Virus record (IMG/VR): IMGVR_UViG_2563366966_000001
From: a virus
Taxonomy: Duplodnaviria > Heunggongvirae > Uroviricota > Caudoviricetes
Length of the DNA: 52,942 nt
Strand: one strand, 5' to 3'
The notes under the pieces are model-generated. The model had not been told where the DNA came from, did no database searches, and saw only the letters and a program-made list of their open reading frames with translations. The position numbers were made by a program, and so were the translations under genes. The first letter of the stretch is position 1; the number at the start of each line of letters is the position of its first letter. Of the stretch, positions 2,621-48,193 are shown piece by piece.

Positions 2621-3211
2621 ATGTCTCAAATTTTTGCTTACTGTCGGATATCAACGCTGGATCAGACCACCGAAAATCAACGCCGGGAAATCGAAAGTGC
2701 AGGTTTTAAAATCAAACCTCAGCAAATAATCGAAGAACACATTAGCGGCTCAGCAGCAACCAGTGAGCGTCCTGGTTTTAACCGGTTGCTTGCTCGCCTG
2801 AAATGTGGTGATCAATTGATTGTGACAAAACTGGATCGCCTTGGTTGTAATGCAATGGATATCAGGAAAACAGTGGAACAACTGACCGAAACAGGTATCA
2901 GAGTGCATTGCTTAGCATTGGGGGGCATTGACCTGACCAGTCCAACAGGAAAAATGATGATGCAAGTAATTTCAGCAGTCGCTGAATTTGAACGAGACCT
3001 TTTACTTGAACGCACTCATTCCGGGATAGTAAGAGCCCGCGGCGCAGGGAAACGTTTTGGTCGACCACCTGTGTTAAATGAAGAACAGAAACAGGCGGTA
3101 TTCGAACGAATTAAGTCAGGTGTAAGTATAAGTGCCATTGCCCGGGAATTCAAAACCTCGCGGCAAACCATTTTAAGAGCCAAAGCAAAACTTCAGACAC
3201 CTGACATATAA
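2621..3211 (+). CDS. pin: Serine recombinase, Pin/Gin/Hin-type DNA invertase
   Basis: 196-aa ORF; N-terminal resolvase catalytic motif (YCRISTLDQ) and C-terminal HTH; matches Pin-family invertases from memory. Confidence 0.9.
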
Positions 3212-3308: not shown

Positions 3309-3884
3309 CTACGGCAGTGCTGGCCATTCAATATCCTGTGCAGTTGACGTATCAACACGGTTCAGCAATACCCGATACTTTTTCCATGCTTCCAGCAACG
3401 AGATTTCTTCCTCCGTTGCAATTTCCAGATCTGCAGCATCCTGAAGCGGCGCAATATGCTCACTGGCTACCTGCATCAGGTTGTTTTTTGTTTCTTCCGC
3501 CTCCCGGATCCGGAACAGTTTTTCTGCTTCCGTATCCTTCACCCAGGCTGTGCCGTTCCACTTCTGAAACTCCCCTTCCGGCGATAACCAGGTAACATTT
3601 TCCGGTAACGGACCGAGTTCAGAAATAAATAACGCGTCGCCGGAAGCCACGTCATAAACCGTTTTACCCCGATGATCTTCAACGAGATGCCACGATGACT
3701 CATCACTGTTGAAAACAGCCACGAAGCCAGCCGGAATATCTGGCGGTGCAATATCGGTACTGTTTGCTGGCAGACCTGTATGAGGCGGAATATATGCATC
3801 ACCTTCACCAATAAATTCATTAGTTCCGGCCAGCAGATTATAAATTTTTATGGTCCGTGGTTGTTCACTCATTCTGAATGCCAT
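3309..3884 (-). CDS. tfa: Tail fiber assembly protein Tfa
   Basis: 191-aa ORF highly similar to lambda Tfa as recalled; immediately downstream of stf. Confidence 0.9.
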
Positions 3885-6800
3885 TATGCAAGCCTCACAA
3901 TATAGTTAAATGCGATGTTTTTGACGGTGTTTTCCGCGTTACCAGCAGCGTTAACGGTGATGGTGTGTCCATGTGAACCAATCGCAACGGAGTGCGTATG
4001 AGCACCAATACCGACAGTATGTGCATGTGCGCCTGCGCTTGCAGCAGTGCCGGACAGCGAGTGGGTATGAGCACCATCTGATGATGTCTTCCCTGCATTA
4101 CGAGTCTGGCCACTACCGCTTGTTGTGCTCATAATCCCCGCGCTTAGATTTGAAATCGCGGTATAACCATTAGGGAAAATGCTCGTGTTCGTGCCACCAA
4201 ATGCACCGGAACTCTTGTGTTGGTGCGCACCGGCACTATTTGCGGTCCCGCTAATACTATGGGTATGCGCCCCGGTGTTATTCGTGGATTTGGTTCCGTA
4301 ATCAAACGACGATGTGGTTTTCGTCCCCAAATCCGTACTGGATGCGCTGGCGCTGTGGGTGTGCGATTTAATGCCGTCCTGTTCCTGAGATAATACGGCC
4401 CGACCACTGGCGGGCTTGCCCTTAATCGTCCAGCCACGCATATCAGGGATCACGCCTGACGGATAAGCAACTGCAAGTTTCGGGTATGCAGATTTGTCAA
4501 AAGTCTGCCCCTGCATCAGGGCATAACCAGACGGAACGGTATCTGATGGCCACGGGATTGGTGCACCGACTGGATAAAACTCTGCAGGAGGATGAGCCGA
4601 GGTGTAAAGCTGCGCCCACGGCGACCAGTTTGCGTCGGTCGTATCCCGTCGTGAACGAATAAATGCCGGAGCATGAGCACCGCTTGTACCACTCCAGCCG
4701 ATGAGTAACTCACCTTCGCCAACGGCTGTCATCCCTTTCAGGTGAATGATATTTCCATACGCTGTTGGATATCCGTTGTTATACACCTCGTATAACTCAA
4801 GACCTGCTGCCCCCTGCGTATTGTCTGTCAGCGCGGTTACCCGACCTTTTGAAGCCAGATTAACTGATGATACTGCTGTTCCACCTGACGGTAACGCCCC
4901 GATCTCTGATGCCGTTGGCTTATTTCTGGAGTTATAGTCCCTTCGCCAGCCAGGTGAATAATCTGTTCCGTGATTAATATAGGTAAACTGGGCGTTAGTT
5001 GTTCCACCACCAGTGGAGGTGGTCGGTGTGGTAATGCGGATCGTCATCGCTGACTTTATCCCCATTACTTCAATGACAGCTCCGGCGAGATGAATATTAC
5101 CGCAGTCAGTATCAGTAATGATTTTATTATTGCCATAAGACCAGGAACCCTTGCACATCCAGTATGGATGGTTAAATGCTCCCTGAGAATCCAGCCACTC
5201 GATAAACTGTGCAGTCGTCCAGTTTCCTGTTGTTGTGCTTACTGACCCACCGAAGGCACGGCAGGCACCAATATTTTTCGTAAAGGTATCTTTGCCAGGG
5301 ATATCCGCACCGTTCTGATCTTTCTGCAGACGTTTCTCAGCATTGTCATTGGCTGCTTTTACTGCCTTTGGTGTCGCGGCAAGCGTTTCAGACGTGCTGT
5401 TGGTCGCGCTGCTTAGCTGGATTATCCCTTTCTGTGCTGTCGTTGCATCCTGTGCGGTGTATTTCCCGTTAGCCAGGTCATACGCGGCCTTAACGGCTTT
5501 TGGTGTTGCCGCCAGTGACTCGGAAGTGCTGTTAGTCGCACTACTGAGCTGTACTATCCCCTTTTTCGTCGTGCTCGCATCCTCAAGCGCCACGGCGGAT
5601 GCAATATCCTCTGCCCGTTTTGCTGCTGTCTCGGCGCGCGTTGCTGCGGATTCTGCCGTACTTTTGCTCTGAGCTGCCGCCGTCGCACTGCCAGCAGCCT
5701 CTGTCGCCTTCGTGGATGCCGTCGTGGCGCTGCTCTTCGCTGCTGACGCTTGTCTGGTCGCCTCATCTTTTGAAGCAGACGCCGATGATGCCGATGACGC
5801 CGCCGAACTGGCTGACGATGCGGCAGCCGTTTTTGAGGATTCTGCGCTGGTTTCCGACGCTTTCGCGTTCGTTTCGGATGTCTTCGCTGCGGAAGCAGAC
5901 CTCGCTGCTGCGCTGGCCTGTTCAGTGGCTTCGCCAGCCTTCGTTGTGGCTGTTGAAGCAGACGATGCGGCGCTTTCTGCCGATTTTCCGGCGGCGGTGG
6001 CACTGGCTGAGGCCTGCCCGGCACTTGTTGACGCTGCACTGGCAGACGACGCAGCCGCTGTTTTTGAGCCTGCCGCAGCCGAGGCGCTCTGTCCCGCTGC
6101 CGTTTCAGAAGACCTGGCGTTCGTCTCTGACGTTTTTGCCGCCTTCGCGGAATTTCCTGCCGCTGTTGCCGAGGAAGCTGCGCTACTGGCGCTCGAGGAT
6201 GCGTTCGTTTCTGATGATTTTGCCGCCTCTTTTGAAGCCGACGCATCCCGGGCTGAGGTGGCAGCTTCTGACGCTTTCGTGGTCGCGGTGGATGCAGAAG
6301 TGGCTGCTGATTGTTGTGACGCTGCAGCATTCGTTTCTGACGTTTTCGCGGCACTGGCACTGGTAGCTGCCGCGCTTTTTGAGGACTCTGCAGCGGCAGC
6401 ACTTTTTGATGCTTCAGTGGCCTTTGTTGATGCCGTTCCTGCGCTGGAAGACGCTGACTGAGCCGACGAAGCGGCCTGTCCGGCTGACGTGCTGGCTGCG
6501 CGTGCTGAGCCTGCAGCATCAGTCGCATGGGTTGCCGCCTCACGGGCAGATGTGCCGGCATCGCCGGCTGACTTCTTCGCGGCTGCCGTGTTCTGTGCCA
6601 CCGCGGACGCGTTACGCGCCACCTCTTCCACCATCAGTTCAAAACGGCGCAGAGCCTCCGGACGGGCATCATCCTCCGTCATGGCACCGAGAAAATCATT
6701 CAGCGTACCGGGTCGGGAATCTTCATACACGGTGATGGTCCCGGCATGTGACGGCGGGAATCCTTCCACCAACAGAATAACGCTGTACTGACCGTACTCA

Positions 6801-6958
6801 ACGTCCATGCTGTAACGCCCGGCTTCATCCGGATTTTCTGAGGCCAGCGTGTTCACCACCACCGCGGTGCTGTTACGTTTTGCTTTCAGCTGGATTGTGC
6901 AGTTCTGTACCGGTTTTCCTGTGCCGTCTTTCAGTACACCTGAAATCTTTACTGCCAT
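3884..6958 (-). CDS. stf: Side tail fiber protein Stf (extended relative to lambda Stf)
   Basis: N-terminus [30 protein letters not shown] and C-terminus [31 protein letters not shown] match lambda Stf; ATG at 6958 chosen over the GTG that starts the track ORF. Confidence 0.9.
5330..6604. repeat. Coding repeats inside stf: Ala/Ser/Thr/Lys-rich low-complexity tract plus a roughly 130-bp tandem duplication (5366..5582)
   Basis: Protein repeat KGI(V/I)[11 protein letters not shown](S/T)[11 protein letters not shown] occurs twice 44 residues apart; DNA units at 5366..5450 and 5496..5582 are visibly similar; long antisense ORFs are generated by the low complexity. Confidence 0.6.
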
Positions 6959-6969
6959 ATTCACCCCAC

Positions 6970-6995
6970 AAAAAAGCCCGCCTGAACAGGCGGGC
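6970..6995 (-). terminator. Rho-independent terminator downstream of lom
   Basis: GC-rich hairpin GCCCGCCTG-AACA-GGCGGGC at 6976..6995 followed on the minus strand by a T-run. Confidence 0.6.
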
Positions 6996-7022
6996 TGTCA
7001 TAACACTGTGTTACCTGGCTAA

Positions 7023-7622
7023 TCAGAACTTATAACCGACACCCACGATGAAACCGTCAGTGCGCCAGTCGCCACTGCCGGAGCCTTCATAAGCAATATC
7101 AATGGCCACGGATTCGGTCGGGTTAAACTGCACGCCAGCTCCCCACGCCAGAGACGTGTTGCTGTGGCGACCGTCATCACTTCCGGTCAGCACGTCGTGC
7201 GTTTTCCCCTTGTTGTCAGTTACGCGGAGATAATCCCCGGAGAAAGTCGACACACGGCTGTAAGCCATACCCGCCATCGCATACGCGCTGAACCATTCAT
7301 TCACGCGCACAGACGGCCCCACCATCACGCTGAACCAGCGGTTACGCACGGAATCTTCATGCCAGCGGGTATCGCTGTAACGGGTAAGCTGGCGATTCTT
7401 GTCTCCTGCATAGCTGAATGACGTCACCAGCCCCAGTGTGTCCGTAAACTCATAACGGTATTTCACGTTAATCCCGTTAAGATCATCGCTGCCGGGAACG
7501 TTCGTCGAGGCATGAAGATACCCCGCGCTCAGCGTGGACTGATGTTCAGATGCCCATGCAGGCGCACCGGATACGGCCAGACAAATGGCTGCGGACAAAA
7601 TGGCGGCATAAAGTTTACGCAT
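7023..7622 (-). CDS. lom: Outer membrane protein Lom (Ail/Lom family)
   Basis: 199-aa ORF with signal peptide; matches lambda Lom from memory. Confidence 0.9.
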
Positions 7623-7646
7623 AATTACCTCTCGCTTTTCTGCAAT

Positions 7647-7670
7647 AAAAAAGGCACCATTTCTGGTGCC
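7647..7670 (-). terminator. Rho-independent terminator between J and lom
   Basis: Hairpin GGCACC-ATTTCT-GGTGCC at 7653..7670 followed on the minus strand by a T-run. Confidence 0.5.
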
Positions 7671-7691
7671 CTTATATGGGTTATAACAATT

Positions 7692-10600
7692 TCAACGAAT
7701 ACTGATGCCGGAAGCGGCTTTTTTGGTCACAATCACCGTACAGTCGGTGATATTGCCTGCCCCCTGATTGCCTTTCTGGAAAATCTTAAACTCCAGAGTG
7801 ACGCTACCACCACCACTAGGCATATCAATAACTGCACTGTAACTACCGGGAATGGCCCCTTTAGTTTCTCTGGATGCGATTAATACGCCGTTTTTGCGAA
7901 CTTCAAAACCATAACCCGTGTATCGCGTGCCTCCTGGGTTATTTCCGCTCCCCGGATCGTCATACGCTATACCGTTAAAAATAATGGGCGGAATAATAAT
8001 CTGGCGGTCAAAGTTATGATCATCGCTGATGGTGACTGTAACCGTACCGTTTGGTGTTTCCGTGTTACCCCACGTACCGACTTTTTTCGGGAAGGCTTTT
8101 GATACAGCTTTAACGAAATCCCCTCTGACCTGGGTCGCCTCCAGCATGCCCTTAATCGTACAGTTCTGGTTAATCGTGACATTGTTGAGCGTTCCTGAGT
8201 TCGCATTCACACTACCACTGATATCCGCATTTTTAGCGGTCAGCTTTCCGTCTGATGTCAGGGAAAATACCGGAGGACTGCCACCGCTGGTAATGGTGGG
8301 GGCCGTCAGGCGTTTCAGGAACACTTCATTCATGAATATCTGATCGCCCTGACCAACAAACATCGGCTTTGTGTTGCCATTCGCAGGATTAATCATCGCA
8401 ATCCTGTCTGCTGCCAGCAGCACCTGACTCTGCATGCCGTCAGGGGTGTTCTCAATACCGGCACCGATACCCGCAATATAAAGGCGTCCGTCCTGCATCT
8501 GCTGCAGCTTCACTGCCCACATGCTGTTCAGGTTATTATTTGTATCAACCTGAACCTTCTGTATCTGCTGGATTGCCGCACTCTGGTCTTCCAGTTTCTT
8601 ATTGACGGTCTGTGTTATTTCATTGCTGACATCCGTTATGGACGTCCTGATTTCAGTCAGGTCAGGCGCAAGCTGACCGTTATCAATCTGCGTCCACAGC
8701 TCCTGAGCCAGATGGGTTTTCCCTATCTCGCCTTTGAAAAAATCCAGATAGCCTGATGCATCATCACTCGGCTGACCGACAGCCTCCACGAATGCCGATT
8801 TGCCAACGGTGTTCACACTGCGAACGTAAAAATAATAATCATGGCCCGGTTTGATATTGATACTGGCGGCTATCCAGTACAGTGCCGTACCAAGATAACG
8901 CGCGCTGGTTTCAACCTGCCTGATATCCGCAATCCGTTTTTCCGAGAACCAGAACTCAAACTGTACCGTCGGGTCATAAACCGCAAGATGCGGCGTGGCG
9001 GTTATCTGAAAATAGCCCGGCGTCAGCTCAATCCGCGACGGCGCTGCCGGTGCGGCAATCCGGAACGATACCGACGCCGGATCGCCCTGCTGCCCCCACG
9101 CATTTACTGCCCGGACTGTCAGCCTGTAGTTCCCCAGAGCCAGTTGTGTGAAGCGGTAAGTGGTTTCCGTCGTCCGGGCCGTGCTGACCAGCCGCTCACG
9201 GCCGTCATCCGCTGCCACGGTCAGGCGAAGCAGGAAGCTCACGCCCTTCACCACCTTCGGCGTGTCCCAGCGCGCCAGCACCTGGTATTCCCCGCTGTCT
9301 GCGGTGACTTCTGCGGTCAGGTGCTGCACCGCTGGCGGCGTGACACCATTTACCGTGCCGCTCTGGTCGCCGTCAAAGTGCGCCCCGTTATCCACGATGG
9401 CCTCTTTTTCCGGTACATGCTGCACGGCGGTGATGGCATACGTGCCGTCGTCGTTCTCACGGATACTCACGCAGCGGAACAGGCGCTGGCGCAACGTCGA
9501 CAGCTTCAGCCCCCATACGCTGTATTCAGCAACGCCGTCAGGAACACGGCTCACTTTCACCTTCACGCCGTCGGTGACGGACTGAACCTCCACGCTGACC
9601 GGACTCCCCTGCCCGTCAACCAGGCTTATCAGCGTGGTGCCGGAAGATGGCAGCGTGATTTCACGGTCGAGCGTCAGCGTCCGGGTCTGGCTGTTTACCG
9701 CCAGCACGCGCCCGCCGGTGCGGATACCGGCATAGTCATCATCGCAGATTTCAATGACATCGCCCGGTACATGGCGAAGCCCTTCGGCACCCACGCTGAA
9801 GTCCACGGTCTGCGTTTCCAGCAGTTCTGTTTTAATCAGCCACAGCCCGGCGCGGTGTGCCTGCCCCCGGCTGGTACAGCCAAAAGCATCCATCTTCGTG
9901 ACGTTACGACCGTAACGGGCAATGGCCTGCGTGTCCTCCACAAGCTCTGTCGCCGTCTCCCAGCCGTTATTCGGGTCAATCCAGTTCACCTCAACGGCAT
10001 TATGGCGGTCCTTCAGGGCGCTGAAGCTGTAGCGGAACGGCGCACCATCATCCGGCATCACCACATTACTGCGGTTATAGGTCCACACCTTATCCGACGG
10101 TCGGTCCTGCACGAACGTCAGCGTCTGCCCGTTCCATACCGGCATACAGCGCATCGCAGAGCAGAAATCACTGAGCACATCCCACGCCTTGCGCTGTGTG
10201 GTCAGGTACGCATTACAGGTGATGCGCGGCTCTGTGCCGCCAAAACCGTCCGGCACCGACTGATCGCAATGCTGGCCGATGACATACAGCGCCCATTTGT
10301 CCACATCCGCCGCACCAAGACGTTTCCCCATGCCGTAGCGCGGATGGGTCAGCATATCCCACAGACACCAGGCCATGTTGTTGCTGTATGCTGGCTTAAA
10401 CGTTCCGTCCCAGATACCGCTGTATTGCCGCGTCTGCGGGTTATAGTTCGACGGCACCTGCAGAATGCGCCCGCGCAGATGATAATTACGGCTCACCTGC
10501 TGGCTGCCGAACTGCTCCGAATCCACCTGCACGCCGACCAGTGCCGTGTTCGGGTAGCACTGTTTCACATCGATGATTTCGGTGTATGACGACCAGAGCG

Positions 10601-11189
10601 TTTTGTTCTGCAGCTGGTCTGTGGTGCTGTCCGGCGTCATCCTGCGCATCCGTATATTGAACGGGCGCGGCGGCAGGTTACCCACCACCACCGAGGCCAG
10701 ATACTGCGAGGTGGTTTTGCCCTTAATGGTGATGTCTTTTTCCGTCACCCAGCCACCATTACGCTGGATCTGAACCAGCAGGCGGACTTCCGACGGATTC
10801 CGGTCCCCCTTTGAGGTGGTTTCCACCAGTGCCTGCACGCCGAAGGTAAAGCGCAGACGGTCGATGTTTGCAGACGTAATGGTGCGGGTGATCGGCGTGT
10901 CATATTTCACTTCCGTACCCAGCACCGTCTCGGAGCCGGAGGATTCAAACCCCTCCGGCGGTGTCTGCTCCTGCTCACCGGCACGGAACACCACCGTGAC
11001 ACCGGAGATGTTGGTATTCCCCTCAGTGTCCAGCACCGGCGTACTGTTCAGCAGCACGCTTTTTAATCCATCCACCGGACCTTCAACCGGCCCTTCGCTG
11101 ATGGCATCGATCACACTCAGCAGCTGCGTGGACTTCAGGTTGTCCTTCGCTTCGCGCGGGGTATGCCCCTTACTGCTGCCTTTACCCAT
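7692..11189 (-). CDS. J: Tail tip host-specificity protein J (central fiber); C-terminal receptor-binding region diverges from lambda J
   Basis: 1165-aa ORF; first roughly 800 residues near-identical to lambda J as recalled, last roughly 170 residues (about 7692..8190) differ. Confidence 0.95.
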
Positions 11190-28322: not shown

Positions 28323-28593
28323 GATGTTACCGTAGTATGTGAGTATCCATCGAATAGACACCAAGCAAAAAAGCTCCCGAAGGAGCCTTCATTTTCACTT
28401 TTTTAAATCCAACGACAGACGGCTGGCATTTAAGTATTGTGAAATATTATCAAATGTAATCATCATTGATTTACAAAAGATACATTTTGCCCCGAAAGGA
28501 TTCATGTCAGAAACATCAAAAGATGATGTTCTATACTGGGAACCATGACAACACGGGCATCTAAAGTGAATATGGTTTGTAATATTGTCTACC

Positions 28594-28806
28594 TCAAAGC
28601 GCCACTACATGAACAGCGGCAGGACCTTTAGGTCCGTTCTCAATACCAAATTCAACTTCCTGATTCTCAGTTAATGTTTTGAAATCGTTGCTCTGAATTG
28701 CTGAGAAATGGACAAACACATCTTTGCTGCCATCTTTCGGCGTGATGAAACCAAAACCTTTTTCAGGGTTAAACCATTTCACTAAACCAGTCATTTTGTT
28801 AGACAT
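28594..28806 (-). CDS. cspI: Cold shock protein CspI (CspA family)
   Basis: 70-aa ORF with RNP1/RNP2 motifs (KGFGFI, VFVHF). Confidence 0.9.
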
Positions 28807-29168
28807 AATTATTACCTTTTGAAGAAATTAGCCCTTGGGCAGAATGGTCCGAAAAAAAATATCAGAGAGAAAAACCAACAAGGAAATCTCAAGAGGTACA
28901 AATAATAAAATTATAACAATGACTGCTTCAGATAAATTTGTAACAAACCAGAACACCATTAACGCATGATTAACCACCCATAGCAAGGATTACTTTTGTA
29001 AAGAAAAACACAGCAATGAAAGAATAGCTTTATTTATTAATAAAACGTGTCATTCTGATTAAGACCTTTTATCTTACCCTTAAGATTTCAGGAATTTTGG
29101 CTCATGGAAGAGTCCTTTTTATTTAAATTTTACATTCCGCGATGTAAATGTTCCGATTTAATATTACC

Positions 29169-31195: not shown

Positions 31196-31477
31196 TGAGA
31201 TTGTGGTGCTTTTTGTGGGAGTCATCCACTTACGCACTTTGTTTTGCCATGCCAGCAGTTAGCTTCTGCTGTAAAACTATTCATGCAGCAAACCTGCACT
31301 TCACCACAATGGTTAGCATACTTTTCCTGATTAAGATTTTGCCAAATATGCTAGCCATTGTTTCATGTATTGGACCTCCTTACTTTTTATTAAAGAGATC
31401 CAATATTCACTACTCTGTCCGTATCTCTACTCAGGCATCAGCCTTCTTCGTTATCGTATACAGACGAGCGATGAATT

Positions 31478-31693
31478 TTAATCAGTAATGATGACATTTG
31501 CTGCTGCAGGACCTTTAGCACCACTCTCTATAGAGAAGGTAACCTTTTGACCTTCAAATAAGGTTCGATAATTATCATTCTGAATCGCAGAAAAATGCAC
31601 AAACACATCTTTACTACCATCAACAGGAGAAATAAAGCCGAAACCTTTATCAGCGTTAAACCATTTTACTAAACCAGTCATTTTATTTGACAT
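31478..31693 (-). CDS. cspB: Cold shock protein CspB (CspA family)
   Basis: 71-aa ORF with RNP motifs. Confidence 0.9.
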
Positions 31694-31993
31694 TCTACAT
31701 TCCTTAACTTGAGCCTTTCGGCATAAATGGTTTGCATAACAGAAACGACTTCGTACTTAATTGGAGAGACTCAAAGAAGGAATAAGTGAATAACACCTGA
31801 AATGAGAACTGCTTTAGTAAACTACTTCGTATATCGTCTGTTCTTCAAACCGACGCAATCATTAACGCATAGTTGAACATATGAAGCAATGTTTATTTTA
31901 GACATCCAGCCATCTTCAACCCCATCAAAAAACTATAGCTTTCTTCAGGAACGTGTGTATAGTGCGCCAAGTTATCAGTATTAAGGAATTTTT

Positions 31994-36963: not shown

Positions 36964-38812
36964 AGTTAACATTACAAGATATAAGTAATGGACGCACTCC
37001 CAATTAGTCTATTTAAATCGCCACGAGTTTAACTGACAACCCATGATCAATTATGAATTGCAACTATTTCTGTAGTCACTTTTGTGGGGACAGTCCACAA
37101 AACTGCCAACTTCCGCTTCTTGCTCTTAGCGGACATTAGCATAGGCTATTTACCATAACGCCTCATTACGCGCACCGCCCAGACTGACTCAGCGCGTTTC
37201 TGGCATATCCCCGGTAAAACAAGTAACAAACCACCCGAAAATGAACACCAGAAACGCGACTTAAGAATCTACCCTATGAATGGATATGCACTCAACCGAA
37301 TCGATCTTGGTTTCAATCTTTTTTATCGGGATCAGGCTTCTTTTTAGGTAACTTCGGGGGCTTAACTTGCTGATGACTTTGCGTTCGGCGCGTAAGCCAG
37401 GGATGGTCAGCTTTAGGTTTAACATAGTATTTTGAGCGTAAATCAATACGGGCATTATCCACTCGTTCATGGACACTCTTTTCATCATCCAGTGGTATAG
37501 GCTCCGGGCCATCAACATACTTTTCCCAGCCCAGCGCTTTCCCGTCATACAGAACGTTAATTTCACCGTCAAAGTTCTCGCATACAGTAACAACCGAATG
37601 CCTAAGTCGATATCCCCGGCCCTCACTGCGTACCTGAAACGCACTGCTTTTGTACTGGAAAGTGAGATTTTTAGACAGAACGCGCTTCGCCTGTAGGCTG
37701 AAGATATAACCCAGTTCCTCTTCAGAATGGTGCACATCAAGATGAGCATTATCAGTAGTACGAGGCGACGTAGCGAACCGGTTGTTATAGGCTTCAATAA
37801 AGGTCGGCAACCATGCATTTGCTGTTTCAATATCACTGATATTCTGAAGCCGCATTTCTTTGACCAGCCTGTCCTGTAGTGTCTGATTGGCGCGCTCTAC
37901 CCGCCCTTTTGCCTGCGGGCTGTTGGCATGGATTGGCTCGATGCCCAGTGTCTTTATCGCACGAGTGAACTGGGTCAGCTCACCTTCCCGCTCTGGGTTA
38001 TTTACCCTGAATATACTGTGTCTATCAGAGTAGAGAGCGAGCGGTACGCCATGATCATTAAGGTAACCCCGGAGGGTTTCCATGTAAGCCCGGGTTGTTT
38101 CAGCAGGCACAAAACGCAACGCCATCAACGCACTGGTGGCATCATCAATGAAAACGATCAGTGTACATCTGGGGCCTCGATTTTCAAACCAGTCATGAGG
38201 TGAGCCATCAATCTGGATCAGTTCACCGTAAGATGGTCGTCGCATGCGGCGTTGATATATACGGGCAATTTTACGACGGCGTTCACGCCATAACCCCTCT
38301 TCTATCATCCACTTTCTGAGAGTTTCAACGGATAAAGATAAACCGTGTATCTCGCGCAATTTTTCGCACGCAAACGTAGGTCCAAAATCAGCGTAACGGC
38401 CTTTGAGGAGTGAAATTACTGTTGCTCTGAATTCAGTAGAAAAGGAATTATTAGGACGCTTTCCACGTCGGTGGGAAACCAGACCAGAAGGCCCTTCATT
38501 TCTATACCGTTGCACCAGACGTTTAACCTGCCGAATAGAAATGCCAATGCGTGCCGCAGCTTGTTCCTGAATAATCTGAAGTCGGTGGAGTTCCTTATGA
38601 CTCATCGTAACAGTCTCTTTGATCATGAAAAATCCCCCAGAGAATTGTCTGGGGACATTTTAGAATGGTTCAAAGGGGACATTACAGCTTGGTGTTAACA
38701 ATAGCCTGCTTCTCCGTGCCTTTCGGCACGTAAGAGGCTAACCTACATGTGTCTAGCATGAAATTGGCCTCAGATTAATGTTAAGCGTCTTGCAGGACGC
38801 GTAATGTTAACT
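36964..38812. mobile_element. Possible extent of the IS481-like element, bounded by a 12-bp perfect inverted repeat (AGTTAACATTAC / GTAATGTTAACT)
   Basis: Inverted repeat at 36964..36975 and 38801..38812 flanking the transposase ORF; no target duplication identified, so boundaries are tentative. Confidence 0.3.
37313..38626 (-). CDS. DDE transposase with N-terminal HTH (integrase-core type; IS481-family-like)
   Basis: 437-aa ORF; HTH-like N-terminus (RIGISIRQVKRLVQRY) and integrase-core signatures (D...D...E with GRVERANQTL); no IstB-like partner. Confidence 0.7.
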   Translation of the reverse strand: MIKETVTMSHKELHRLQIIQEQAAARIGISIRQVKRLVQRYRNEGPSGLVSHRRGKRPNNSFSTEFRATVISLLKGRYADFGPTFACEKLREIHGLSLSVETLRKWMIEEGLWRERRRKIARIYQRRMRRPSYGELIQIDGSPHDWFENRGPRCTLIVFIDDATSALMALRFVPAETTRAYMETLRGYLNDHGVPLALYSDRHSIFRVNNPEREGELTQFTRAIKTLGIEPIHANSPQAKGRVERANQTLQDRLVKEMRLQNISDIETANAWLPTFIEAYNNRFATSPRTTDNAHLDVHHSEEELGYIFSLQAKRVLSKNLTFQYKSSAFQVRSEGRGYRLRHSVVTVCENFDGEINVLYDGKALGWEKYVDGPEPIPLDDEKSVHERVDNARIDLRSKYYVKPKADHPWLTRRTQSHQQVKPPKLPKKKPDPDKKD

Positions 38813-38985
38813 GGGGCTTTTCTCTATCTGCCGTTGGTGTCCATGCCCGAGGCAGATAGCCTCAAGCACCCGCAGTCATTCTACTTAACTAAGATTTCCC
38901 CGCAAACCGTTTTTGTCCAGCACAGTAAATATCCAACTAAACCAATGGAGTTCGCTGTATTTACCGCCAGTATTCAATGCACATG

Positions 38986-48135: not shown

Positions 48136-48193
48136 TTTCTGGTGACGTTTGGCGGTATCAGTTTTACTCCGTGACTGCTCTGCCGCCCTTTTT
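48136..48193 (+). ncRNA. dicF: DicF small regulatory RNA (ftsZ-targeting)
   Basis: Sequence TTTCTGGTGACGTTTGGCGGTATCAGTTTTACTCCGTGACTGCTCTGCCGCCCTTTTT matches DicF as recalled, ending in a terminator hairpin and T-tract. Confidence 0.85.

Follow-up and report, generated by a model that had tools for sequence, protein, structure and literature searches.

A Qin-type lambdoid prophage module with a recombinant J protein, a 434-type tip predicted to recognize OmpC, and a modular side tail fibre

The four minus-strand genes J, lom, stf and tfa examined here form the host-recognition gene block of an ordinary lambda-like prophage of E. coli. They lie in a stretch of viral DNA of 52,942 nucleotides (IMG/VR record IMGVR_UViG_2563366966_000001; hereafter the window), and they are very probably best explained as a Qin-type module that combines a recombinant J protein, carrying a tip predicted to bind OmpC, with a modular Stf side fibre. 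The module is of an already known type and contains nothing novel. An original prediction made from the sequence alone had described host-range determinants that diverge from those of lambda; most of what it described is real, but it is ordinary and already known, and the description was incomplete. The features of the module are as follows:

3309–3884, minus strand: tfa, tail fibre assembly chaperone, 191 aa (PF02413, E 4e-43).
3884–6958, minus strand: stf, side tail fibre protein, 1024 aa (PF08400, two copies of PF03406, PF07484; 93% identical to PhiR42_1 Stf).
3887–4570, minus strand: Stf distal collar, HxH needle and tip, aa 797–1024, T4 gp37-like (PDB 2XGF; PF07484, Collar).
4571–5326, minus strand: Stf middle module, aa 545–796, absent from lambda and shared with the tail fibres of P1, P7, P2 and Mu.
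5327–5590, minus strand: two tandem 44-aa PF03406 tail-fibre repeats (copy 1, 5459–5590; copy 2, 5327–5458; Pfam E 6e-37).
5591–6607, minus strand: Stf Ala/Ser/Thr-rich heptad tract (proximal coiled coil), aa 118–456, with a 7-residue period.
6557–6958, minus strand: Stf N-terminal tail-attachment domain, aa 1–134 (PF08400 over its full length, E 3e-71).
7023–7622, minus strand: lom, Ail/Lom outer-membrane beta-barrel protein, 199 aa, 434-type allele (PF06316, E 1e-119).
7692–11189, minus strand: J, tail tip/central fibre protein, 1165 aa (Pfam order of lambda gpJ; 99% identical to PhiR42_1 J).
7695–8309, minus strand: J block C, aa 961–1165, lower fibre and receptor-binding Ig-like domain, phage 434 type (alignment, PF12421).
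8310–8774, minus strand: J block B, aa 806–960, alpha-helical shaft and upper beta-prism fibre, diverged from lambda.
8775–11189, minus strand: J block A, aa 1–805, hub domains and two FNIII/Ig domains, lambda-like (alignment).

Relative to lambda J, with which it shares 82% identity overall, the window J is a mosaic of three blocks. Its Pfam domains, all above the cut-offs, follow the order of lambda gpJ, namely FNIII-A_GpJ (PF24801), Phage-tail_3 (PF13550), Ig_J (PF24421), Ig_J_second (PF24489), Phage_Tail_Tip (PF09327) and Ig_GpJ_C (PF12421), and the gene sits after those for the tape-measure protein and for homologues of M, L, K and I; the RefSeq order at an identical locus is tape measure, tail protein, minor tail protein L, C40 peptidase, tail assembly protein and gpJ. 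Block A is identical to lambda J at 789 of 805 aa (98%), with 90–99% nucleotide identity in 90-nt windows. The original prediction had taken all of J upstream of its last 170 or so residues to be near-identical to lambda, which fails for block B (aa 806–960, window 8310–8774). Here only 70 of 127 aa (55%) agree with lambda J, with 28 gap positions, and a 28-aa insertion lies in the alpha-helical shaft at about aa 836–866 (window 8592–8684). The comparison with lambda h434 J gives the same picture, its counterpart of aa 806–960 being of another type from that of the window J, which has 28 extra residues, while PhiR42_1 J matches block B at 155 of 155 aa. The names used for the shaft and fibre domains are those of the lambda gpJ structure paper (PMC11101478).

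Block C, comprising the lower fibre and the Ig-like receptor-binding domain, is shared with phage 434 and lambda h434. It is identical to J of lambda h434 imm21 at 200 of 205 aa (97.6%), with about 96–99% nucleotide identity per 90-nt window, and its C-terminal host-range segment matches that of phage 434, which places the protein in the 434-type (h434) class. PF12421 covers aa 1029–1164 over the full profile (E 6e-25), and the receptor-binding domain aligns through its C-terminus to the structures of lambda gpJ–LamB (PDB 8XCJ) and A8 gpJ (PDB 9WCA). The last 153 aa are only 39% identical to lambda J, in line with the expectation that the end of the protein, put at about 170 residues, would differ, and far from the identity that would have counted against the original prediction. 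The change at the C-terminus is a block replacement with sharp boundaries and not drift. No solved structure of a 434-type receptor-binding domain was found in the copy of the PDB that was searched, and a single-sequence AlphaFold2 model of aa 961–1165 (mean pLDDT 43.1, pTM 0.37) was too poor for a fold search; the placement of this domain rests on Pfam and on sequence matches to the PDB.

Our alignments suggest that the receptor of J is OmpC and not LamB, because block C is near-identical to the J protein of 434, whose host range uses OmpC. According to two papers, lambda in which J is exchanged for the fibre gene of 434 takes OmpC as its receptor, like 434 itself (PMC11101478, PMC3509688); a literature search yielded no paper linking 'h434' and OmpC by those words. 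By homology to 434, attachment of the J trimer to OmpC, itself a trimeric porin, should be irreversible, and this binding would be transmitted up the beta-prism and the shaft so that the tail tip opens, by analogy with lambda gpJ and LamB. The protein as a whole is a recombinant of a lambda-like hub with its FNIII domains, a common alternative shaft and upper fibre, and a 434-type segment of 205 aa at the end.

A tip that recognizes neither LamB nor OmpC but a different receptor, such as OmpF or some other porin, or that accepts only certain OmpC alleles, is unlikely. The cause would lie in five substitutions, all within aa 1047–1143, that separate the window J from lambda h434 J (N1047D, D1078N, I1136V, Q1138H and G1143W). 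OmpC serves both natural J chimeras, A8 and 1A2, as receptor, yet the two are not alike in the OmpC alleles that they accept (PMC11338833), and point mutations in lambda J have been reported to allow the use of OmpF as a receptor (PMC11101478). However, the last 152 aa of J are 96.7–97.4% identical to the phage 434 records OL657226 and OL657227 and occur at 100% identity in nine phage records (eight phages, one of them deposited twice). Variation of this kind is normal inside the 434-type class, with 74 phage records at 90–100% identity to the same segment. We retain OmpC as the predicted receptor of J.

The side fibre is of 1024 aa when read from the ATG at 6958, as in RefSeq (the GTG at 6964 preferred by the ORF finder gives two residues more). 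The Ur-lambda Stf used as reference, reconstructed by repair of the lambda PaPa frameshift, has 774 aa, and the difference of 250 aa is the one predicted. Like Ur-lambda, the window has a Tfa and an Stf that combines an N-terminal collar domain and a heptad coiled coil with a PF03406 repeat, a collar domain and an HxH needle; the window Stf differs in having 105 aa more of coiled coil, one more PF03406 repeat and a different tip loop. Its N-terminal prophage tail-fibre docking domain (PF08400) aligns to lambda Stf without gaps from residue 1. In Ur-lambda Stf, residues 1–91 form a collar around the gpV/gpM junction, and a domain map and OmpC binding are given for that protein in the same study (PMC12617516).

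The long Ala/Ser/Thr/Lys tract that had been singled out is present, with 339 aa (A 37.5%, S 24.8%, T 12.1%, K 6.5%), but it is no departure from lambda, whose Stf has the same Ala/Ser/Thr tract (80% identity over the first 352 aa); it is merely 105 aa longer. Residue autocorrelation in the tract is 0.39–0.44 at lags that are multiples of 7 versus about 0.18 at other lags, and the spacings of its DNA repeats are mostly multiples of 21 nt. The 105 aa, or 15 heptads, that have no lambda counterpart form a single gap against Ur-lambda at Stf aa 308–412 (window 5723–6037). Long open reading frames across the tract (5554–6561 on the minus strand; 5599–6366 and 5712–6461 on the plus strand) were rejected as by-products of its GC-rich repetitive codons. 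The tandem duplication of roughly 44 residues was also recovered, as the two PF03406 copies at aa 457–500 and 501–544, which are identical at 30 of 44 aa (68%) and 82 of 132 nt; lambda has one copy. A DNA-level repeat search across stf returned only heptad-spaced low-complexity repeats; it did not pick up the 44-aa duplication, nor any recent one that could account for the extra 105 aa. The 44-aa repeat is not recent but old and diverged, and its motif is a known one.

Beyond the repeats, the hinge and distal segment of Ur-lambda Stf are replaced by a module like that of P1, P2 and Mu. In tblastn searches, aa 545–796 matched P1 Sv' at 74% (query coverage 96%), P2 at 82% within the first 147 aa and Mu S' at 70%; the PDB match was to 8JU3, 'Tail fiber protein S/S'' (E 2e-71), and a Pfam search assigned no family to this segment. 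The 434-type Stf, in contrast, is a collagen-repeat fibre of 437 aa in lambda h434 imm21 and beyond its N-terminus is unrelated to the window Stf.

The distal segment resembles the tip of T4 gp37 (PDB 2XGF, E 1.8e-84), which likewise has a collar ahead of a needle carrying repeated HxH metal-binding motifs. The seven HxH pairs, which are iron-site motifs in gp37, do not vary among the proteins of T4, lambda, PhiR42_1 and the window, but a block between them does; the lambda needle aligns with two extra repeat blocks relative to the window. The 3' 956 nt of stf, distal segment included, are 99.8% identical to the K-12 stfQ remnant. The hypervariable tip occupies aa 916–964 (window 4067–4213). 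By alignment, the receptor-contact residues 933–953 of gp37 (PMC6957217) co-locate with this block, but opposite gp37 residues of about 933–966, the region of contact with LPS/OmpC, the window Stf has a longer segment of different sequence. The loop matched none of the fibres with a known receptor and differs from those of lambda, T4 and PhiR42_1. The window Stf is also a siphovirus side fibre with a Tfa, whereas T4 gp37 uses gp38. We propose that Stf is a trimeric side fibre that would be assembled with Tfa, dock on the tail by its N-terminal domain, and be extended by a coiled coil 15 heptads longer than that of lambda, two PF03406 repeats and the P1/P2/Mu-type module. The gp37-like, iron-binding HxH needle would then present the hypervariable tip for the first, reversible contact with the cell surface. 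There is a slim chance that this tip recognizes something on the cell surface that is neither OmpC nor the LPS core and, further, that the added length of the J shaft (28 aa) and that of the Stf coiled coil (105 aa) are a co-adapted geometry and not independent mosaics. Compared with Ur-lambda, the Stf coiled coil is predicted to be longer by about 15–16 nm and the J shaft by about 4 nm.

Tfa is 95% identical to lambda Tfa and is named tfaQ in RefSeq; as expected of a side-fibre chaperone, its gene adjoins stf and overlaps the stf stop codon. RefSeq annotates a pinQ-like recombinase gene at 2621–3211, and an invertible tail-fibre switch of the Gin/Cin/Pin type was considered and rejected. A search for gix/hix-like crossover sites (AAACCNNGGTTT, one mismatch) gave two distant matches, no more than chance, and none near the pinQ-like gene; a DNA repeat search found no inverted repeats on the two sides of stf/tfa; and neither the ORFs nor the annotated genes between pin and tfa include an alternative fibre cassette.

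The module belongs to an intact Qin-type lambdoid prophage integrated in ydfJ, and the window is the intact counterpart of the Qin remnant of K-12. The chromosomal locus, with ydfJ, ydfK, pinQ and tfaQ, is shared with K-12 Qin (RefSeq annotation and match to K-12), and DicF was found in the window; the K-12 cryptic prophage has stfQ, tfaQ, pinQ and DicF at the same locus. K-12 Qin keeps only the 3' part of stf, adjoining nohA (features under the match), whereas the window has a complete J-lom-stf-tfa block and further tail genes upstream. Uninterrupted matches to the 7.9-kb block at 100% identity are present in at least seven complete E. coli genomes, and phage PhiR42_1 (PV340562) is 97.7% identical in DNA to the whole module over 98% of the query. 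PhiR42_1 and its relatives PhiR68_2, mEp460_ev081 and mEp332 have the same gene order.

It is very unlikely that the module is a decaying cryptic-prophage remnant without functional fibres. The Qin locus is one at which K-12 has only a remnant, including a truncated stfQ, and, among the matches listed at 100% identity, 8 of the 15 stretches include an IS3-family transposase. However, J, lom, stf and tfa are each open over their full length (ORF listing), J and Stf are 99% and 93% identical to the proteins of PhiR42_1, whose record gives ECOR13 as host, and the seven HxH pairs are all intact, as are the Pfam domains.

A separate observation concerns the Stf tip, of which different versions have been swapped into phages with about 98% identity elsewhere: the tip loop of PhiR42_1 (window about 4081–4247) does not align with the window at the DNA level and its protein sequence is also different. 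Fibre modules are known to be exchanged at conserved motifs, and the swap is an example of this, which may help in the choice of fibre parts for engineered lambda particles. This fibre type is carried by 800 genomes.

Continued use of LamB, with the C-terminal divergence of J as neutral drift, is hardly credible. The tip does share the receptor-binding Pfam family with lambda (PF12421), but it is only 38% identical to the lambda domain, with 17 gap positions, and near-identical to the domain of phage 434, whose OmpC-dependent host range is the classical alternative to that of lambda; the change is a sharply bounded block replacement. The prediction of a receptor other than LamB is supported by the match of block C to lambda h434 J. 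Its presentation as a notable divergence from lambda was misleading, however, even though the J end does differ. Lambda is the unusual one, its J end not being the commonest form among E. coli prophages, because 2090 of the 5426 complete E. coli genomes (39%) carry the 434-type end; the long shaft of block B is present in 3559 of the 5426 at a coverage of at least 80%. The analysis offers a specific receptor call, putatively OmpC, for a prophage J tip; its importance beyond annotation is little.

The 434-like DNA runs contiguously from the 3' end of J through lom into the 5' end of stf (window 6537–8523), at 94% identity. The product of the adjacent lom agrees with Lom of lambda h434 imm21 at 198 of 199 residues (99%). 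The original prediction made no mention of lom, which lies inside the region that it described and whose product is 45% identical to lambda Lom.

The sequence features originally noted for the J-lom-stf-tfa host-recognition module are real, given corrections that include one to the remainder of J, and their arrangement is an already known and very common lambdoid tail-fibre mosaic. The four genes belong to the Pfam families expected of them:

3309-3884, minus strand, tfa (Caudo_TAP)
3884-6958, minus strand, stf, ATG start, protein of 1024 aa beginning MAVKISG
7023-7622, minus strand, lom (Ail_Lom)
7692-11189, minus strand, J, 1165 aa (gpJ domain series)

In Pfam, J has the complete gpJ domain series, ending with the receptor-binding domain PF12421, and Stf comprises PF08400, two copies of PF03406 and a Collar domain. 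The mechanical stf ORF opens at a GTG two codons 5' of the ATG; the RefSeq annotation of an identical locus gives 1024 aa. Tfa shares 95% identity with its lambda counterpart. Entirely within the tfa coding sequence, Rfam reports IS009 (221 bits; 3343-3541, minus strand), a match that probably reflects the family definition rather than a separate RNA gene.

Overall identity between J and lambda J is 82%, with the differences clustered in blocks. Their boundaries come from a four-way alignment of the window, lambda, lambda h434 imm21 (a lambda derivative with the 434 host-range J) and the close Escherichia phage PhiR42_1:

aa 1-805, 789/805 identical to lambda J and 789/805 to lambda h434 J
aa 806-960, 70/127 plus 28 inserted residues, and 71/127 plus 28 inserted
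aa 961-1012, 46/52 and 52/52
aa 1013-1165, 56/142 and 148/153

The original prediction was that the last ~170 residues of J differ from lambda while the rest is near-identical. The first part is borne out by aa 1013-1165, with only 56 of 142 residues shared, but the second fails at another divergent block of 155 residues (window 8310-8774). In the lambda gpJ structure, the domain order is FNIII, alpha-helical shaft, beta-prism fibre and receptor-binding domain, and residues 841-861 are shaft helices that refold upon receptor binding (PMC11101478). This published order places the 28-residue insertion (around aa 836-866) in the shaft, where it would add about four heptads to the helix bundle.

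The C-terminal 205 residues of J are identical to those of lambda h434 imm21 at 200 of 205 positions, and DNA identity over this 434-type end is about 96-99% per 90-nt window. The last 152 residues show 96.7-97.4% identity to phage 434 itself (two records) and occur at 100% identity in nine records of phages, among them mEp460_ev081 and several Stx2 phages. When the 434 fibre gene replaces lambda J, the receptor becomes OmpC, as for 434 (PMC11101478; PMC3509688). Given this near-identity, OmpC is the best-supported prediction for the receptor of J, which both supports and sharpens the earlier expectation, likewise drawn from the J end, of a receptor other than LamB. This prediction is to be read with caveats: five substitutions separate this J from lambda h434 J, all within aa 1047-1143, and natural OmpC-binding J variants accept different OmpC alleles (PMC11338833). 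No chain in the PDB copy searched was a 434-type receptor-binding domain, the nearest solved ones being the OmpC-binding chimera 'A8 gpJ' (9WCA) and lambda gpJ (8XCJ); a single-sequence structure model of the C-terminal segment was unusable (pLDDT 43).

Lom is a 434-type allele, with 45% identity to lambda Lom and 198/199 (99%) to that of lambda h434 imm21. A contiguous 434-like DNA block (window 6537-8523, 94% identity) extends from the interior of J across lom and covers the initial ~420 nt of stf. Because this block is unbroken, the J tip and lom appear to have been acquired together as one 434-type segment. In lambda h434 imm21, Stf (positions 7283-8596) is a collagen-repeat fibre of 437 aa whose C-terminus is PF06820; past the N-terminal domain it has no relation to Stf of the window, and hence J tip and side fibre assort independently.

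As anticipated, Stf is about 250 residues longer than its lambda counterpart: 1024 against 774 aa (+250) in Ur-lambda Stf, obtained by repairing the lambda PaPa frameshift. Over the first ~307 residues, covering the N-terminal domain and part of the Ala/Ser/Thr-rich tract, the alignment with lambda is ungapped. Lambda then has one gap of 105 aa, opposite aa 308-412, after which the alignment resumes. The long tract singled out in the original prediction is thus present (aa 118-456), but lambda shares it and is only 105 aa shorter there. It has a strong 7-residue period (identity of 0.39-0.44 at multiple-of-7 lags versus about 0.18 elsewhere) and is the counterpart of the proximal coiled coil of Ur-lambda Stf (PMC12617516). 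The extra 105 aa equal 15 heptads, resemble the remaining tract only as expected of such repeats, and have no DNA-level duplication behind them. The ~44-residue tandem duplication was confirmed as a pair of PF03406 repeats, at aa 457-500 and 501-544 (68% protein and 62% DNA identity), against one in lambda. In alternative frames and on the opposite strand, long ORFs of 249-335 aa also overlie the tract (5554-6561, minus; 5599-6366, plus; 5712-6461, plus); these are not genes but by-products of repetitive GC-rich codons.

Residues 545-796 of Stf form a module missing from lambda that matches P1 Sv' (74%), P7, P2 (82% over the first 147 aa), Mu S' (70%) and PDB 8JU3; judged by these matches, it is classic tail-fibre module sharing between unrelated phages. 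The distal part (aa 797-1024) matches the solved tip of T4 gp37 (2XGF, E 1.8e-84). All seven HxH pairs, the repeated metal-site motif of this needle, are invariant in the window, PhiR42_1, lambda and T4; the loop between the third and fourth motifs (aa 916-964) is different in all four. This loop aligns to about gp37 residues 933-966, a region in which contacts to LPS and OmpC have been demonstrated (PMC6957217). Its DNA (window 4081-4247) is the sole stretch of the 7.9-kb module without alignment to PhiR42_1, otherwise about 98% identical, and by this comparison the difference is a localised swap flanked by conserved HxH motifs.

The flanking genes ydfJ (truncated, 1-1284), ynfT, ydfK, pinQ and tfaQ, together with the DicF RNA, assign the module to the locus of Qin, the K-12 cryptic prophage. 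Coordinates of these and of further RNAs are:

2621-3211, plus strand, pinQ-like serine recombinase gene, adjoining tfa
28567-28952 and 31462-31854, minus strand, two cspA-type thermoregulator leaders
38700-38871, minus strand, sok antitoxin RNA
48137-48188, plus strand, DicF sRNA

From these RNAs and the truncated ydfJ, the window is recognisable as an intact Qin-type prophage. Over its 3' 956 nt, stf of the window shares 99.8% identity with the K-12 stfQ remnant. Neither gix/hix-type crossover sites nor alternative fibre cassettes were detectable for the pinQ-like gene, which on these grounds appears to be an orphan invertase.

Among the matches listed, at least seven complete E. coli genomes carry the module uninterrupted at 100% identity, and eight more E. 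coli copies at 100% identity, including NZ_CP010371 and NZ_CP067399, match in two pieces, with an annotated IS3-family transposase inside the matching stretch. At a threshold of ≥99% identity, the matching records number 114. Close sequenced phages are, among others, PhiR68_2, mEp460_ev081 and, at 97.7% DNA identity with 98% query coverage, PhiR42_1. In recent work on defence systems, PhiR68_2 is listed in a panel of lambda-related temperate phages; PhiR42_1 appears to come from that series. At a coverage of ≥80%, the 434-type J end was present in 2090 of 5426 complete genomes, the long-shaft J block in 3559 and the 3' half of stf in 800.
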